Shown: positions 4,986-59,071 of the stretch, in pieces
Layout: each line of letters begins with the position of its first letter
Numbering within the stretch: position 1 is the stretch's first letter
Source: a virus
Reading direction: 5' to 3' (one strand)
DNA: 64,000 nt
IMG/VR virus record: IMGVR_UViG_3300048837_001089
Location: 5,277-69,276 of that record
The notes under the pieces: model-generated
The model's database searches: none
What the model was told of the DNA's origin: nothing
Seen by the model: only the letters and a program-made list of their open reading frames with translations
Translations under genes and position numbers: made by a program

Positions 4986-5604
4986 CTGCATACTCCAGTT
5001 CATTGAGGCAGCGGAACAGGGTTCGACCGGACTTGAACTGCAACGACACATGCCAGTGACCGAAGAACCATTCGCGTGGCTGGTGTAGATGGAGCATCCG
5101 CTCCAACGCCTGTCGTGTCCGACTACCGTCCTCGATCTTTCGCCGGTTGAGCGCGGCTAGCATTTCGTTGGCAATCGACTCCGGGCAGTCGTGCGTGATG
5201 ACGATTTCCGGCTTGATGGCCGCATAACCGTCAATCATGCGCTCAAGTTCGGCGTAGCTGCATTCCTCGTCCGGCCACCAGTCCCAGCCTTCGGTGCGCC
5301 ACGCCCTGTCGATGCTGATTGCCCCGCCTACGCAGTAGACGCCGTCGACAGTCGTGCCGTCCGGGATACAGTAGCGCTGCGTCTTGCACACAGACGGGTT
5401 GTCGTGATTGCCTCGGATGAACAGATGCCTGCCTTCCGACATGGCGTCGAACGGTGGGTTGGGCATCCAGGTGAAATCTCCGTGCTGTCGCCGAAAACCG
5501 ACGCCCATGTCGCCGGCCTGGATGCTGAACGGCACGCCGCGGATGATCTCGCGATACCTGCGGAATTTGCCGTGCACGTCGCCAATGATGCGAACTACGC
5601 TCAT
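4972..5604 (-). CDS. Calcineurin-like metallophosphoesterase
   Basis: GDVHG, GDMG, GNHD, THD, GHWH. Confidence 0.9.
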   Translation of the reverse strand: MSVVRIIGDVHGKFRRYREIIRGVPFSIQAGDMGVGFRRQHGDFTWMPNPPFDAMSEGRHLFIRGNHDNPSVCKTQRYCIPDGTTVDGVYCVGGAISIDRAWRTEGWDWWPDEECSYAELERMIDGYAAIKPEIVITHDCPESIANEMLAALNRRKIEDGSRTRQALERMLHLHQPREWFFGHWHVSLQFKSGRTLFRCLNELEYADVEL

Positions 5605-6904: not shown

Positions 6905-7351
6905 TCAGCCGCCGATCGTGAAGGCAGGCTGATCCGGTTCTTTCGGCGCGTCACCGCTGACGGGCGGCTCGCCATCGTAACGGACGCCGCCGTTTTCCCC
7001 GACTGTGGCAAAGGCTTCGCCTTCTCCGTCGAGGGCGCCTTGCAGATCGCCGGCACGGGCGGGGCTGTACGGCAGGACGTAATAGATCGGCTCGCCGGAG
7101 CCGCTATCGAGCAGGACGTAGATGGCTCCGCTGTCTGTGGCCGTGGGTACGACGATCTTGGCGCCGACGACCGTATAGTTGCCGGGCGGCGGCGCGGTGA
7201 ACTGCGGCTGGCCGAGCGGGACGTACATCGCAAGCGCGGCAAGCACTGTCATCACAGGCAGCGTCAGGGCCGGGGTGCGCCGCGTCGACACCCATGCGAA
7301 GCCGCACAGGAGCAAGGCGAGCGCCAGCCAGACGGAAGCGATGAGGGTCAT
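6905..7351 (-). CDS. Two-TM membrane protein with periplasmic domain
   Basis: Two hydrophobic helices followed by a beta-rich AIYVLL...PIYYVLPY segment. Confidence 0.7.
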   Translation of the reverse strand: MTLIASVWLALALLLCGFAWVSTRRTPALTLPVMTVLAALAMYVPLGQPQFTAPPPGNYTVVGAKIVVPTATDSGAIYVLLDSGSGEPIYYVLPYSPARAGDLQGALDGEGEAFATVGENGGVRYDGEPPVSGDAPKEPDQPAFTIGG

Positions 7352-51363: not shown

Positions 51364-51978
51364 CTACGCCGCCCGCTTGGAGCCCCACGGCGTCTTTGCC
51401 GTGCCGCCTGCGGGTTGTGCCGTGGCCGCTGGCTGCGCCGCCTGACGGTTGTCATTGGCCGGCTTGGCGGCCTTTGCGGGCATCGTGCCGTCGCCGATGA
51501 CACCAAGCTCCGGCAGTTCCTCCTTGGCGTTGTCGTCTTCGTAGAAGAAGTGCTCGATCTGGTTCTTGTCCTTGTAGTATTCGCCGCTGCCGTCGTTCTT
51601 CGGCTGGCCGGCCTGAATGCCGATCTCAGCCACGAATGACTTGTAGAGCAGTTCGTCGTGGCTCATGCCCCGCTGGACGATCACCTGCACTGCGCGACAG
51701 AAGCGGTCGAACATGGGCTTGCCGTAGCGATACGCGCCGTTCTTGAACTCGTCCGCGTGCAACATTGTATAGTACGCCCAGAATTTCCGGCCCTTGAACT
51801 CTTCGGGCTCCTGCACCTCGAAGGTGATTGCGGCCTGCCGGCCTTTGCCGTCCTTGGTTTCCGGGAAGTCGATGGCCTCGGCCCAAATCCGCGCGTACAT
51901 ATGCGGGATGATGCCGCCCCCGCCCTGCTTGTCGGTGGATTCAAAGTCGTGGCTGATGTCGAAATCGATAACTGACAT
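51364..51978 (-). CDS. ssDNA-binding protein (DUF669-like)
   Basis: FEV...FKGRKFW...KNQI; downstream of Sak4. Confidence 0.7.
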   Translation of the reverse strand: MSVIDFDISHDFESTDKQGGGGIIPHMYARIWAEAIDFPETKDGKGRQAAITFEVQEPEEFKGRKFWAYYTMLHADEFKNGAYRYGKPMFDRFCRAVQVIVQRGMSHDELLYKSFVAEIGIQAGQPKNDGSGEYYKDKNQIEHFFYEDDNAKEELPELGVIGDGTMPAKAAKPANDNRQAAQPAATAQPAGGTAKTPWGSKRAA

Positions 51979-54619: not shown

Positions 54620-54973
54620 CTAGCACCAGGGCTCCCGGCGGCCCGTCCACGTGCGGGCAAGGCCGGCGGCTACTAGCTGGTCGCCTACGTCACGGCCGTC
54701 GACCGTGATAAACGCGAGCGTCCTGCGGTACTTGTCGAGCTTGTGGCGCGTGATGACCACCTTCCCGCTTGCCAGAATGGCGGCAAGACGCGCCTTGGCG
54801 CGCTGTGCCAGCCGGGTTTCGTAATCGCACCGGCCGTTTATTTCCGGCGCGTCGATATTGGCGATGCGCACGCTTTCGGCGCCGATGCGGATGCTGTCGC
54901 CGTCCCACACCTTGACCTGCGTCGGGGTGCAAAGGTTGGCGCAAATCAGGGCTGTGATGATGGTGTGGGTCAT
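54620..54973 (-). CDS. Thermonuclease (SNase family)
   Basis: WDGDSI, RIANIDAPE, DKYRRTLA, GLAR. Confidence 0.92.
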   Translation of the reverse strand: MTHTIITALICANLCTPTQVKVWDGDSIRIGAESVRIANIDAPEINGRCDYETRLAQRAKARLAAILASGKVVITRHKLDKYRRTLAFITVDGRDVGDQLVAAGLARTWTGRREPWC

Positions 54974-54977
54974 GAGG

Positions 54978-55538
54978 TTAGGCCGGGACGACTATGTGCG
55001 CGCAGCCGCGAAACAGGTGCGAATCCATTGGCGGCTTTTCGGACACAATAATCAGTTTGCCATCGGCCCAAGCGCGTACACGCTCGGCAGTGGCCGCGAA
55101 TACCCCGCCTTCGCTCAGCCAGGTTGACCTGATGGGACCGGCGTCGTCGACTATCGCAAATTTGAAACAGGAGGCCCGCACCATCCCCAACCCTGGACGG
55201 TGTGACGAGTACGGCTGCCCTTTGCCCAGGAATCTCGTCGTGTCCACACAATCATTGAGCCCATCCCATCGGATGCTGATGTAGGGCGAGTTCGCAGTCT
55301 CGATTATGCGCTCCAGCCTGGATTTCGTCGCCCACACTGAGTTGCCATCGCGCGCTTGCACCTCTACCCATATCGGGCGTCCGCCCGGTGCAAACACAGC
55401 GTCACATGCACGCCGTATAGCCGTTTCCTGCGCGGGGATATTTGCTCCCTGCTCCGCCGCCACGGCCGTACCCGAAACGGCCGGCAAGGCCGCCATGGGC
55501 GCGAGGCCAAGTGCTGTTAGTAGTGCTCTCCGGTTCAT
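54978..55538 (-). CDS. Hypothetical protein with twin-arginine-like N-terminus
   Basis: AAGGAG RBS; MNRRALLTALGLAPMAA. Confidence 0.7.
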   Translation of the reverse strand: MNRRALLTALGLAPMAALPAVSGTAVAAEQGANIPAQETAIRRACDAVFAPGGRPIWVEVQARDGNSVWATKSRLERIIETANSPYISIRWDGLNDCVDTTRFLGKGQPYSSHRPGLGMVRASCFKFAIVDDAGPIRSTWLSEGGVFAATAERVRAWADGKLIIVSEKPPMDSHLFRGCAHIVVPA

Positions 55539-55562
55539 TGTCTGGTTCTCCTTTTCTGTGAG

Positions 55563-55727
55563 GTTGCCCGCCGCGCTTCCCGCATGGGTTGCGAGGTAGG
55601 GATGGCAGCGGGCAATGAGGATGCAGACCGGCGCTGGGTGGATGGGAAGCGGAGCAATCATGGCCGGTCTGCAAGCTGTCGGGGCGGCGCGTACCCACTG
55701 GGTTTCGTTGCCCGATTGGCCGCCCCG
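55563..55727 (-). repeat. Dual-spacer stem-loop (TIGR-like) sub-array D, 3 units
   Basis: Units 55563-55616, 55622-55673, 55680-55727; + strand pattern stem-(G/C)GCG-N9-TGGGNNNCG-N9-TGGC(C/A)-stem. Confidence 0.88.
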
Positions 55728-55733
55728 TGCCGG

Positions 55734-56372
55734 TCACACCGGCAATTCGTCTACGTCGGCGCGCAGCTTCGCGGCCTGCGCAAGCGTCACGACCTTTGAC
55801 ACAATCTGTTCGGCGCGCGTGCCCTTTGCGCGAATCAACCTCAGCCACGACATCTCGCGGTACTCGCTGCCGATCCGGCCAGCCTTCTCCGCGCATATTG
55901 CGTCAAGCTGCTCCATCGTCGCGTCGCCCAGCCGGACAGTCCTGCCGTTGCCCAAGCCGTACCGAATATCGAATAGCGTCTCCTGGCTGGCGCGGCTGCC
56001 GCTTGCGTAGCTGGCACGTACCGTGGCCGTAAAGCCGGCCCCTATTTTCTGTTTGGCTTTTTCGGAAAGTTTTGCCGCGAGGCCGACCTTGGCTGCTCCG
56101 TCCGACTCCGCTGCGGCGAGGATGCGCTTGTTGTCACTCAGTCGGACGTGGGCAATCATGCTTTTTGCCTGTTCGAGCAACATGTAGTCGCGGAGAGATT
56201 CGCGGGCCAGCGCTTCGCGGTAGAGTGCCGTTGCCGCCTTGGCTTCATCGCCATTGCATGCGTCGAGTATACGGCGTGCTGTCGATGCGGGCGTCTCGTC
56301 ATGCGCGCCCGTAACGCGCTGGCGACGCGGCTTGAAGGCTTTGGTTGTTCTGGTTTCTGGTGAGATGAACAT
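55734..56372 (-). CDS. Hypothetical protein bracketed by two sub-arrays
   Basis: GGAG RBS, 212 aa; abuts array units on both sides. Confidence 0.75.
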   Translation of the reverse strand: MFISPETRTTKAFKPRRQRVTGAHDETPASTARRILDACNGDEAKAATALYREALARESLRDYMLLEQAKSMIAHVRLSDNKRILAAAESDGAAKVGLAAKLSEKAKQKIGAGFTATVRASYASGSRASQETLFDIRYGLGNGRTVRLGDATMEQLDAICAEKAGRIGSEYREMSWLRLIRAKGTRAEQIVSKVVTLAQAAKLRADVDELPV

Positions 56373-56399
56373 TTCAGTGCTCCGTTGGGTTTTGGGGTA

Positions 56400-56693
56400 A
56401 GCGACGCGGCGCCCGTAGATTGGGGTTCGCCCGCCGTATGGCCGCATCGCTATGGGTTGCCTGACCGGGCGATCGAGTACCGGGCTGCGTCACCAGTTTG
56501 GCCCGGTCAGGCGTTGGTTAAGAGGGCGGCGGCTTCATCATGAGTTTCGCAAGCAGCATGGCCGCCCTCTATTGGTTACCCCGCCGCCGCGCGTCCTCGG
56601 CCGGACTGCGGTCCTCCTCTGGCAGCGACGGGAATTGGTGTGGCGGGGCGGCGGATTCATGATGGGTTTCGCCAAAGTGGTGGCCGCCCCGCC
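56400..56693 (-). repeat. Dual-spacer stem-loop (TIGR-like) sub-array C, 5 units
   Basis: Units 56400-56451, 56459-56512, 56521-56570, 56580-56632 (degenerate), 56642-56693; period about 60 bp. Confidence 0.9.
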
Positions 56694-56698
56694 TTCGG

Positions 56699-57937
56699 CT
56701 ACGCCATAGAGCGTCGCCATTCCGAAAACAGGTCTGCGACCATGCACTTGCCGAGATATCGCAGGGCGCGGTTGGTGGCGTGCTTCTTGTACGATTCCTT
56801 GTGCTCGCCCTTGGCGTTAATCGCAGTCGTGACAGGCAGGCCCAGCTTGTCCGATTCCAGCCTTACGCGCTTCGCGAAAATGCGCTGCTGCGGCGTCAGG
56901 TCAGGATTGGCGTCAACGTCCTCGCCAAAGGCGGGCCGCCACTTGCCCATGCCGAGAATCATCGGCCCGGTCGCGTTCCACAGGACGCTTCGCCGCTTGC
57001 GGTTGTAGCCCTCGGTGACCCACGTGTCCTCCGTGGCTCCCGCACCTGGGTTGCCCTGCCTGTGGCCGTCGATAACCGCCACCCCAAGCCGCTTCCACAA
57101 GGCGGACACGGACTTGAAGTCGCCGACTACAAAAACCTCGCCGGCCTTGCCGAATTCATTATCAGTGCGGTTGACGCTGGTGGCTTCCGCGATGATGGTA
57201 GCGAGTGACACGTCGCCCAGGCCCTTCGTCTTTTTGCAGAAGTCGATGATGGGAAGTTTTCGAAGCTCGCGGATCATAACCTTCGCTCGGTGCTGGATTT
57301 CCGCCTCAAGCGGCTCCTGCGCCCGCAGGTACGGTGCGATGGCCTCGTTGAGTTCTGACGCCGGGTCCGCCAAGGCCTTCTTGTATTCGGCGTCTACAAA
57401 CTTTTCGGCGGCTTTTGCTTCGGGCGAATCGCGGTCGCCGAACCTCTCGATGCCCAGAAAGCCGCGCACAATCGCCTTACACTGGTTTGTCAGCTTTGTG
57501 TTCGCAACGATGGCGCGCTGCCGTAGACGATGCGCGTGCCGGATGGCGAGGATTGCCGGCAGGTGCGCCGGGTTGGTGCGGAAGACGGGGGCGTCCTCAC
57601 CTTGGGTTTCGCAGATGTTATGGCCGCCGTCTTCCGTTGGGGAACCAGCGTGCGGCGGTTCGGCAGTGGGTTTCGCCCGCTTGATGGCCGCATCGCTGGT
57701 TTGGGTGTTGCCGACCGCGTCTGGATAATGGGTATCGACCGGTGACTGGCAGTCGGCAATAAGTGGGCTGGTGGCGTAGTCCGGGTGGGTTTCGTCGCGC
57801 CCTTGGCCGCCAGCTTTGGTGTTGCCCTTGGCGGCTGCCCCGGAGGCGCCGTCGCGGGCTTTTCGTATGCGCACTCTCGGCGCTGAATCTGTCATCGCCG
57901 CGAGTGCGGCGGGGTTCATGGGTACGTCGTCAAACAT
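56699..57937 (-). CDS. Nuclease-less IS110/Nop-domain RNA-binding protein (TasA-like)
   Basis: HRLRQ...KLTNQ coiled coil, KGLGDVSLATIIAE, DFKSVSALWKRLG, YNRKRRSVLW, HATNRALRY; no DEDD RuvC domain; AGGAGA RBS. Confidence 0.8.
   Translation of the reverse strand: MFDDVPMNPAALAAMTDSAPRVRIRKARDGASGAAAKGNTKAGGQGRDETHPDYATSPLIADCQSPVDTHYPDAVGNTQTSDAAIKRAKPTAEPPHAGSPTEDGGHNICETQGEDAPVFRTNPAHLPAILAIRHAHRLRQRAIVANTKLTNQCKAIVRGFLGIERFGDRDSPEAKAAEKFVDAEYKKALADPASELNEAIAPYLRAQEPLEAEIQHRAKVMIRELRKLPIIDFCKKTKGLGDVSLATIIAEATSVNRTDNEFGKAGEVFVVGDFKSVSALWKRLGVAVIDGHRQGNPGAGATEDTWVTEGYNRKRRSVLWNATGPMILGMGKWRPAFGEDVDANPDLTPQQRIFAKRVRLESDKLGLPVTTAINAKGEHKESYKKHATNRALRYLGKCMVADLFSEWRRSMA
57579..57815 (-). repeat. 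Dual-spacer stem-loop sub-array B, 4 units inside the tas-like ORF
   Basis: Units 57579-57636, 57643-57701, 57707-57760, 57766-57815. Confidence 0.9.
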
Positions 57938-57958
57938 GCGGTGTCTCCTGTTGTGGTG

Positions 57959-58144
57959 GCGCAAGCGGCGCCCCTAGAATGGTTTTCGACGGTACGGTGG
58001 CCGCTTGCGTTTAGGGAGCCCGGTCGGCGGTGGACCAATGGATTGCGCTTGTTTTGTGGCCGGCCGGGCTGTTGGTGGATTTGGGCGGGTTGGGGGTGAT
58101 GGCGCGCATTTCATGGGTCACGCGGCGGCGCTGGCCATCACCCC
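57959..58144 (-). repeat. Dual-spacer stem-loop sub-array A, 3 units
   Basis: Units 57959-58010, 58017-58070, 58093-58144. Confidence 0.9.
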
Positions 58145-58305
58145 GAACGCGCCACCGGCGTCTCAGCCGGCAGCGTCCTCTGTGCGTCTACGGCGGGTTC
58201 GGCAGGACTTCGAGGATTCTTCTCTTGCCGCTCATCTCGTTCATGACCTTCGATCCCCTGTGTTTCGGCGCGTCTTGGGAGGCGACCGCCGGGTGGTTGA
58301 TTGGG

Positions 58306-58369
58306 GTTATATGCCTAACGCAGATTATTGTCAACTGCCTAACGCAGATTTATATGTGCGATACGCAGA
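58306..58369 (-). promoter_or_regulatory. Left early promoter with three repressor operators
   Basis: - strand TTGACA-N17-TATAAC (58334-58306); operators at 58310-58324, 58334-58348 and 58355-58369 resembling TCTGCGTWACGCAGA. Confidence 0.8.
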
Positions 58370-58371
58370 CC

Positions 58372-58989
58372 ATGATTAGGAACAACGAAGAAATAGGCGT
58401 CAGGCTGCGAGAAGCGCGCGAGGCTGCGGGGTTTAAGACCGCAAAGGATGCAGCGCAGTCTATGGGTGTCCCCTACGGAACCTACTCACTGCACGAAACT
58501 GGCGCGCGAGGCATCGCCCGCGCGGTTGAGCTGTACGCACGGCGTTTACACGTTTCTGTAGATTGGCTGCTGAGGGGAATCGGCCCTGGCCCCCGGAACA
58601 AGAAAGCCGCTGCGGTTGGCATACCGTTGCTTTCTTGGGTTAGTGCTGGGGCTATGAGCCGGGATGATGTTGGTGACGAAGCCCTCGGCGTGCTGGATAT
58701 AGGGCACCTGCCTGACGGCGACTGGATCGCCCTTCGTGTCGAGGGCGACTCGATGGACCGAATATCTCCTCCAGAATCGGTTATTCTGGTGAACCGTAAA
58801 GATCGGCGCCTCGTCGCAAACGCCTGCTATGTGGTGTCCGACATTAGCGGCAATGCCACATATAAAAGGTATCGGCCCAATCCACCGAGGTTTGAGCCTG
58901 TATCCACCAACCCCGTACACGAGCCGATTTATCCAGACAACGAAGTCCCGGTTGTCGGGCGTGTGCGCCGCACCATCTTGGACATGTGA
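58372..58989 (+). CDS. cI: CI-like repressor (HTH + S24 peptidase)
   Basis: RLREARE HTH, VDWLL, VSAG cleavage site, GDSM, YKR. Confidence 0.93.
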   Translation: MIRNNEEIGVRLREAREAAGFKTAKDAAQSMGVPYGTYSLHETGARGIARAVELYARRLHVSVDWLLRGIGPGPRNKKAAAVGIPLLSWVSAGAMSRDDVGDEALGVLDIGHLPDGDWIALRVEGDSMDRISPPESVILVNRKDRRLVANACYVVSDISGNATYKRYRPNPPRFEPVSTNPVHEPIYPDNEVPVVGRVRRTILDM

Positions 58990-59001: not shown

Positions 59002-59071
59002 TCTGCGTTAAGCGAGTAACTTGCGTAACGCAGATTTTTTTGTTGACTTTTGTATCTGCGTTACGCATAAT
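59002..59071 (+). promoter_or_regulatory. Right early promoter with three repressor operators
   Basis: TTGACT-N17-CATAAT (59043-59071); operators at 59002-59016, 59020-59034 and 59055-59069. Confidence 0.8.

Follow-up and report, generated by a model that had tools for sequence, protein, structure and literature searches.

In the TIGR systems described by Faure et al. (2025; PMC12045711), each guide carries two spacers of ∼9 nucleotides (nt), each flanked by a box C (CCA) and a box D (UG), with an A-rich loop repeat between D and C and a functional unit of 36 nt. The same paper describes a second, stem-loop architecture, in which variable palindromes replace the edge repeats, and shows it for a TasA from a Peromyscus gut contig. 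In the account of Xu et al. (2026; 10.64898/2026.09.09.750476), 2,559 stem-loop arrays are catalogued, the units have a 9-nt loop and variable stems, some units lie within the tas gene itself, a conserved CUU at the stem base is given as a processing mark, all stem-loop clades are without the C-terminal Y/H loop, and transcription is repressed by TasA and by dead TasR; a structure of PlTasA with a stem-loop guide has also been solved (Guan et al., 2026; 10.64898/2026.08.11.744272). Here we analyze a 64,000-nt stretch of viral DNA (positions 5,277 to 69,276 of the IMG/VR record IMGVR_UViG_3300048837_001089; referred to below as the window, with positions counted from its first letter), in which an array of hairpin units surrounds and enters a gene for a Nop-domain protein on the minus strand, between 55564 and 58144. 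The virus is a single record of 69,276 bp with a CheckV completeness of 100, of which the window (62% G+C) is the greater part. As developed below, the locus is very probably a stem-loop TIGR-TasA system of a temperate Hyphomicrobiales (Rhizobium-type) phage. The initial annotation, made from the sequence of the window, had called it a stem-loop TIGR-Tas-like, RNA-guided system, and the units do match the published design of stem-loop tigRNAs, with two 9-nt spacers, CCA as box C, xG as box D, a 9-nt loop, and a variable palindromic stem. Because they follow that design, the system is of an already known kind, and the novelty that the annotation implied does not stand: stem-loop TIGR-TasA was published in 2025–2026, with guides inside the tas frame and with repressor activity.

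The array comprises 15 hairpin units in four groups of 3, 4, 5, and 3 (sub-arrays A–D; Table 1), all on the strand of the tas gene and no more than 1.2 kb from it, with 4 of them inside it. Each unit is built as a stem of 8–13 pairs, CCA, 9 nt, CG, N4, CCA, 9 nt, CG, and the returning stem, and all 15 match the pattern CCA-N9-CG-N4-CCA-N9(10)-CG with at most one motif mismatch; the consensus, GG-CCA-N9-CG-AAAC-CCA-N9-CG-CC, is 36 nt long and is set inside a longer stem. The units with their grouping, all 30 spacers, and the 36-nt core are thus as the initial annotation had them. Its two motifs, GGCCA and CGCC, are present as letters, but their reading has had to be mended: the best reading of these letters is as two copies each of box C (CCA) and box D (CG), with a G-C/G-C/C-G closing stem. 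The 30-nt internal loop then runs box C, spacer A, box D, an A-rich tetraloop, box C, spacer B, box D. Departures from this grammar are few. In units 9 and 11 the second CCA is replaced by CCG, and spacer B of unit 9 is indeed 10 nt long, as had been claimed, all other spacers being 9 nt. Units 5, 9, and 15 carry the edge variant TGCCA...CGCG instead of GGCCA...CGCC, which would give a U-G closing pair, and two neighboring compensatory pair changes separate the stems of units 5 and 15. In unit 9 (56592-56619, minus strand), spacers A and B are identical at 7 of 9 positions, so that its predicted target is near-palindromic; across 623 guides there is no palindromic-target tendency or A/B covariation (mean identity 2.21, versus 2.37 for non-cognate pairs).

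That these units stand out from the background is seen in several scans. An inverted-repeat search recovers arms spaced by exactly 30 nt (repeats I1, I5, I6, I7, I9, I11, I12, I13, I15, and I19 are units), and the half-unit pattern GGCCA-N9-CGNNANCCA, allowing at most one mismatch, has 19 matches in the window versus 2.37 expected (standard deviation 1.45), a count reached in none of 100 shuffles; 13 of the 19 matches are units. A strict scan, requiring the motif and an unbroken stem of at least 6 pairs, returns 11 units, all on the minus strand within 55564-58144, together with two weak plus-strand matches, and finds 0–5 matches in each of 20 Markov-shuffled windows; the 4 units that fall outside it each show one stem mismatch or a bulge when read from the sequence. 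When the scan is relaxed and run over the whole genome, 14 of the 15 units are recovered; elsewhere it gives 9 weak matches of background quality and no solo guide unit of good quality outside the array, and a box-like site at 51855-51877 has no stem. The stems differ in sequence yet pair, in agreement with the initial annotation. Across the 15 units, 82.1% of the stem cells are paired (53.6% in shuffles), 60 cells are changed on both sides (21.9 in shuffles), and the covariation score is 0.692 (0.155 in shuffles and 0.12–0.18 in slid controls), each of the three values being reached in none of 500 shuffles; both-side changes are found at 11 of the 13 stem pairs. Sub-array A folds as three hairpins with z = -3.66 (none of 200 shuffles folds as well). 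No Rfam family scores above threshold for the units, and the one unrelated match (E 0.18) falls outside the array.

Judged from its sequence profile and its modeled fold, the product of the gene at 56699-57937 is a nuclease-less Tas protein. The initial annotation had described it as Nop/IS110-like, which profile and fold now narrow to a Tas homologue. The open reading frame (ORF; 421 amino acids in full) matches the NCBIfam model NF052498, TIGR_Tas_endo ("TIGR-Tas system RNA-guided endonuclease"), at E 8e-14, and a profile built from 58 homologues matches chain 9MTY_A (TaTasR) at E 4e-16, 9MTY being the entry cited as the TaTasR structure by Xu et al. (2026). The conserved coiled-coil and Nop core, whose residues are conserved across the 58 homologues, is encoded by 56702-57577, and units 4–7 lie in the stretch that codes for the N-terminal ∼120 residues. 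An AlphaFold (AF2) model of residues 121-412 (predicted local distance difference test [pLDDT] 92.9; predicted template-modeling score [pTM] 0.88) shows three long helices, forming a coiled coil, followed by a Nop C-terminal domain. Foldseek ranks 1–10 against the Protein Data Bank (PDB) are all TasH or TasR chains solved by cryo-electron microscopy (cryo-EM), with probability 1.00, E from 1.7e-5 to 1.2e-3, and template-modeling scores of 0.43–0.61. The last helix of the model spans residues 265–291 of 292, and Tas ends 2 residues past a conserved WRR; with the final helix reaching the penultimate residue, the C-terminal Y/H processing loop is absent. We found no HNH, RuvC, or other nuclease family in the ORF (Pfam at E ≤ 1; PHROG and NCBIfam at E ≤ 0.1). 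The frame is open from the ATG at 57937 through all four embedded units, and between unit 7 and the conserved core there is no in-frame ATG, GTG, or TTG. The lack of a nuclease family together with a frame that runs through units 4–7 marks the protein as being of the TasA type, with guides embedded in the 5′ coding region.

The locus has many relatives. A word-indexed search yields 77 clusters of Tas homologues, named only "hypothetical protein", from Brucella/Ochrobactrum, Shinella, Rhizobium, Mesorhizobium, and others, and an exhaustive search yields 1118 homologue representatives at E ≤ 0.001. In all, 136 loci were compared (55 from bacterial genomes, 80 from IMG/VR, and that of Rhizobium phage RHph_X2_25, MW960032), of which 123 are distinct after de-duplication. 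With a unit detector tuned on the window, the tas strand of these loci gives 726 units and the opposite strand 84 (643 versus 75 after de-duplication); the detector finds at least 3 units at 76 of the 123 distinct loci and no unit at 18. The same layout recurs in RHph_X2_25, a phage isolate of Sinorhizobium americanum, where it is placed between "repressor protein C" and an XRE regulator and both locus genes are annotated as hypothetical. One Brucella daejeonensis assembly carries two tas loci with a partner gene (described below) at each; 11 units are detected at the first (L003) and 0 at the second (L009), which may use another unit grammar or have no guides.

Comparison of these loci shows that the guides turn over while their frames persist. 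The initial annotation had named spacers invariant across related phages as an outcome that would speak against an RNA-guided system; of 612 guide pairs in 78 distinct arrays, only 9 are found in more than one array, and this variation supports the TIGR-Tas assignment. Among 295 pairs of units from different arrays with near-identical stems (at most 2 of 20 nt different), both spacers are unrelated (at least 5 of 9 nt different) in 247 and the same in 10. The distribution of spacer distances is bimodal, with values of either 0–2 or ∼7 of 9, and spacer identity is ∼25%, the random level, even at a tas-core identity of 92–97%. In replaced cores the 4 variable loop letters change as well, and the boxes and the stem are kept. 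The 27-nt guide cores are thus renewed all-or-none, each as a complete cassette within a stem that is kept. In 16 of 16 cases a shared core occupies the same stem, never a different one, which argues that, in this set, new cores are not copied from other units. The same pattern is seen in a close relative on public wastewater contigs (probably DNA), which is ∼91% identical over 55500-56396: of the 35 differences listed in 55572-55697, 28 lie in five spacers and 5 in loop letters, and units 14 and 15 show no difference in their paired outer stems (211 further differences lie beyond those listed, and uncovered parts are uninformative). In wastewater contigs, too, 165 nt of the embedded sub-array B are swapped for 42 nt, a net change of -123 nt, that is, 41 codons, so that the tas frame is kept. 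The route of spacer renewal is named as an open question in the discussion of Xu et al. (2026). In 72 of 78 arrays the spacers are lower in G+C than the locus that holds them (means 0.54 versus 0.61; r = 0.44), a weak hint of targets in somewhat AT-richer DNA of similar hosts.

The second gene of the locus, which we call P2 (212 amino acids, all-helical), is bracketed by sub-arrays C and D and recurs in most related loci. An iterative hidden Markov model (HMM) seeded by P2 matches one ORF per locus, always on the tas strand, in 117 of the 136 loci, and none of 2957 opposite-strand ORFs; among the 673 six-frame ORFs of the phage, P2 is the sole match. After de-duplication, a homologue is found in 104 of 123 loci and in 102 of the 113 with at least 1 kb of upstream sequence, and 8 of the 19 loci without one are cut off too soon upstream. 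The place immediately upstream of tas is taken by the homologue in 115 loci; in the other 2 (L057 and L010), as in the window, it is found downstream. P2 resembles no described family: against Pfam there are only two matches, far below the cut-offs (E 0.12 and 0.23), against PHROG and NCBIfam none, and against PDB sequences nothing below E 0.3. Its AF2 model is helical and in two parts (pLDDT 84.5; pTM 0.51), and Foldseek searches of PDB and BFVD with it give nothing at E ≤ 0.001; the best VIA-align Z is 4.8, a value common for helical models, and an Atlas search returns only unnamed viral clusters, at 0.83–0.84. A complex prediction for the Tas core and P2 scores 0.00 and 0.00, which is evidence for neither contact nor its absence. 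In word-indexed searches the closest Tas relative is 86% identical versus 56% for the closest P2 relative (Logan P0004 and P0239, with a longest contig of 3730 bases for each); P2 evolves much faster than Tas if these two share one contig.

The partner protein probably works with TasA. Faure et al. (2025) describe TasA as without clear associations with other proteins, and we found no mention of a P2-like partner in the main text of Xu et al. (2026), the supplements and TIGRSafari being outside that search. More tentatively, and in our view rather doubtfully, P2 might be an obligatory third component of this TasA clade, acting as an auxiliary in guide maturation or driving the all-or-none renewal of the 27-nt cores; if the latter were true, it would open the spacer-acquisition route of TIGR systems.

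The surroundings of the array suggest when it would be used. Upstream of unit 1 lies a putative early promoter, overlapped and flanked by 3 exact copies of the operator-like repeat TCTGCGTWWSGCA at 58312-58369, and opposite it a gene for a CI/LexA-like repressor, whose product matches PHROG 4 (transcriptional repressor) at E 5e-29, Pfam Peptidase_S24 at E 9e-10, and HTH_31 at E 1e-5. The repeat motif has 9 matches in the window versus 0.72 expected. Downstream, on the same strand as the array, are the early genes for a SNase-type nuclease, a Sak4-like annealing protein, and a sliding clamp. We infer from this position opposite a CI-like repressor that the locus heads an early operon, which would be inactive during lysogeny and activated upon infection or induction. 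Three more copies of the repeat lie at 59022-59069, just past the end of the repressor gene, two of them forming an inverted pair, an arrangement suggestive of a second operator region. The leader of ∼150 nt that separates the putative promoter from unit 1 contains an 18-codon ORF (58188-58244, minus strand), which has a purine-rich stretch before its ATG and may be a leader peptide or chance. Right after the last guide unit comes an ORF (54978-55538, minus strand) with a twin-arginine-like signal peptide and no family match, followed by a staphylococcal-nuclease-type gene (54620-54973, minus strand).

Table 1. Features of the TIGR-TasA locus and its immediate context (window positions)
Feature	Position	Strand	Details
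Sub-array A, units 1–3	57960..58144	-	58093-58144, 58017-58070, 57960-58009
Sub-array B, units 4–7, within the tas reading frame	57579..57814	-	57767-57814, 57708-57759, 57645-57699, 57579-57636
Sub-array C, units 8–12	56400..56693	-	56642-56693, 56579-56633, 56521-56570, 56459-56512, 56400-56451
Sub-array D, units 13–15	55564..55727	-	55680-55727, 55622-55673, 55564-55615
tas gene, TasA type, 412 amino acids from the ATG at 57937	56699..57937	-	Profile and fold matches
Partner gene P2, 212 amino acids, all-helical	55734..56372	-	Bracketed by sub-arrays C and D; iterative HMM
Putative early promoter, TTGACA-17 nt-TATAAC, with operator-like repeats TCTGCGTWWSGCA; predicted operon start	58297..58369	-	Hexamers read by eye
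Divergent CI/LexA-like repressor gene (context, outside the system)	58372..58989	+	Helix-turn-helix and S24 peptidase domains

Taken with what is published on its relatives, this arrangement suggests how the system might work. One early transcript would start at the promoter overlapped by the operator-like repeats, opposite the CI-like repressor, and would carry, in order, 3 units, tas with 4 units in its 5′ coding part, 5 units, the partner gene, and 3 units. By inference from PlTasA, MbTasA, BlTasA, TaTasR, and SpTasH, a TasA dimer would bind each processed hairpin. Published relatives further suggest that spacers A and B would pair with opposite DNA strands, defining an 18-bp site with no protospacer-adjacent motif, and by analogy with MbTasA and PlTasA the bound complex would be a roadblock that represses transcription. 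After switch-on, the system would act on host genes or on competing mobile elements.

Several observations weigh against the assignment of the locus as a stem-loop TIGR-TasA system. The TasR cut leaves an 8-nt 3′ overhang (Faure et al., 2025), from which we derived the target site: spacer A comes first, and the reverse complement of spacer B follows it. The initial annotation had inferred up to 15 targets in the host or in competing elements; the searches made here, described below, turned up no natural target, and in them cognate pairs match no better than shuffled ones. Within the 69-kb phage genome itself, both orders were searched with gaps of 0–2 (six arrangements): the best ungapped cognate matches of spacer A followed by the reverse complement of B carry 3–6 mismatches, and over the six arrangements the cognate means are 4.1–4.6 mismatches versus 4.4–4.5 for 210 non-cognate pairs. 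In 1.1 Mb of related loci, 3 of 623 cognate and 4 of 1842 non-cognate pairs match with at most one mismatch. In 401 genomes of the order, guide 2 has 3 matches with at most one mismatch versus 5 for the reversed pattern, and exact scans of IMG/VR with guides 2, 7, and 8 give 3, 2, and 3 scattered matches versus 2 and 0 for non-cognate mixes. To these are added points of detail. The 52-bit score against the NCBIfam endonuclease model lies under the model cut-off of 100, the model having been built for endonuclease forms. Of 636 units, 16% have CTT, the DNA form of the published processing motif, among the 8 nt on the 3′ side, and 6% have it in the 5′ flank; 2 of the 15 window units carry it, these counts not being tied to the exact register of the published CUU motif. 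The promoter was found by eye, and a promoter scan does not return this site, because its -10 hexamer ends in C. Finally, none of the sequencing runs listed for this stretch is on record as RNA, and the matching contigs are probably DNA.

Two further results of these searches stand apart. A search of 5 host genomes with guide 2 gives a single match, with 2 mismatches. Within the phage, guide 1 alone comes near to matching, at 7187-7206 (minus strand; 1 mismatch, in the unexpected order and with a gap of 2), and this match was rejected as probable chance because one of its halves is a GC-rich 9-mer.

The failure to find a DNA target is also what lends some weight to the first alternative, that the units guide the protein to RNA as box C/D small RNAs do, with host or phage RNAs being marked, masked, or modified as a result; small nucleolar ribonucleoproteins (snoRNPs; PMC12045711), moreover, share both its Nop fold and the box C/D grammar of the units. 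We consider this improbable. The methyltransferase partner expected on the snoRNP model, fibrillarin (PF01269), has 0 matches in the 69-kb phage genome (of 14 known genomes used as a control, 5 were positive; a partner encoded by the host would escape this search), among solved structures the nearest relatives are Tas complexes bound to DNA, and in the TIGR-Tas papers TasA relatives bind DNA and TaTasR is inactive on RNA substrates. A second alternative takes the same missing targets, the repeat-filled 5′ part of tas, and the absence of expression data as signs of a decaying or orphaned copy, in which the hairpins are mere structured repeats or terminators that the protein no longer uses. This is less probable still: the reading frame is intact through the four embedded units, the model is confident and its core residues are conserved in the 58 homologues, the stems covary, the indel of the wastewater relative within the embedded units preserves the frame, and the turnover of spacers inside constant stems and boxes points to selection on the guides. 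Last, an IS110-type transposon with the hairpins as bridge RNAs for recombination is almost certainly the wrong description, for although NCBIfam IS110 (NF033542) matches weakly at E 1.6e-6, PHROG "transposase" entries match the Tas ORF, and IS621 and ISCro4 recombinases appear at Foldseek ranks 12–17, the NCBIfam match reaches 27.5 bits versus a cut-off of 140 and covers the shared core only (model positions 116–248 of 343), short of a full-length match with the DEDD RuvC-like and catalytic Tnp domains, no Pfam family, IS110 transposase families included, matches at E ≤ 1, the locus has fifteen units of one hairpin each and not a single bridge RNA with two loops, and the gene is at a fixed place in related phages.

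Most known TIGR-Tas systems lie on metagenome fragments. The clade described here is found in complete temperate phages and prophages of cultivable Rhizobium-type bacteria, with a cultivable phage-host pair at hand in Rhizobium phage RHph_X2_25 and its host, and although the locus is ordinary as an example of its kind, its worth is that of a tractable model. The discussion of Xu et al. (2026) lists natural targets, the origin of new spacers, and maturation auxiliaries as open questions of TIGR-Tas biology. On these, the stem-loop TIGR-TasA locus offers three handles: the conserved partner gene, the cassette-like replacement of guides between near-identical phages, and a place opposite a CI-like repressor that predicts the time of switch-on. 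The clade may already be listed in the supplementary tables of the published papers or in TIGRSafari.

Set against the known systems, the locus shares the fold of the RNA-binding core with the IS110/IS621 bridge-RNA recombinases; unlike them, it has no catalytic domains, many one-hairpin guides instead of one two-loop bridge RNA, and no transposon ends. With box C/D snoRNPs (Nop5/Nop56/58, fibrillarin, and L7Ae) it has in common the Nop fold and two guide segments set by boxes C and D, but the phage has no fibrillarin, and its targets would be DNA, by analogy with the solved Tas complexes. The dual-repeat TasR and TasH nucleases (TaTasR, 9MTY; SpTasH, 9W03/9W04) are closer, with a homologous Nop core and guides laid out on the same 36-nt plan, in which a loop joins two copies of box C, 9 nt, box D; the protein described here differs from them in having no RuvC or HNH domain and no self-processing Y/H loop, and its guides have variable hairpin stems in place of edge repeats. 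The closest match is to the stem-loop TIGR-TasA systems (PlTasA from the Peromyscus leucopus gut contig, BlTasA, and MbTasA), which likewise have a nuclease-less coiled-coil and Nop core, an extended N-terminal region and no C-terminal Y/H loop in Tas, hairpins with two 9-nt spacers, boxes C and D, and a 9-nt loop, and sub-arrays upstream of, downstream of, and within the tas frame. Against the published arrays, box D is CG here, whereas UG is described for TasR arrays, and in the linkers, dominated by ACC/CCA/CAA words, the CUU motif reported by Xu et al. (2026) is not evident. Unlike the stem-loop TasA systems named above, this one has a conserved partner gene embedded in the array, belongs to phages and prophages of Alphaproteobacteria with cultivable hosts, and has its operon opposite a CI-like repressor. 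What the locus adds to the known kind is the partner gene, the all-or-none replacement of guide cores, and the operator-overlapped putative promoter opposite a CI-like repressor.

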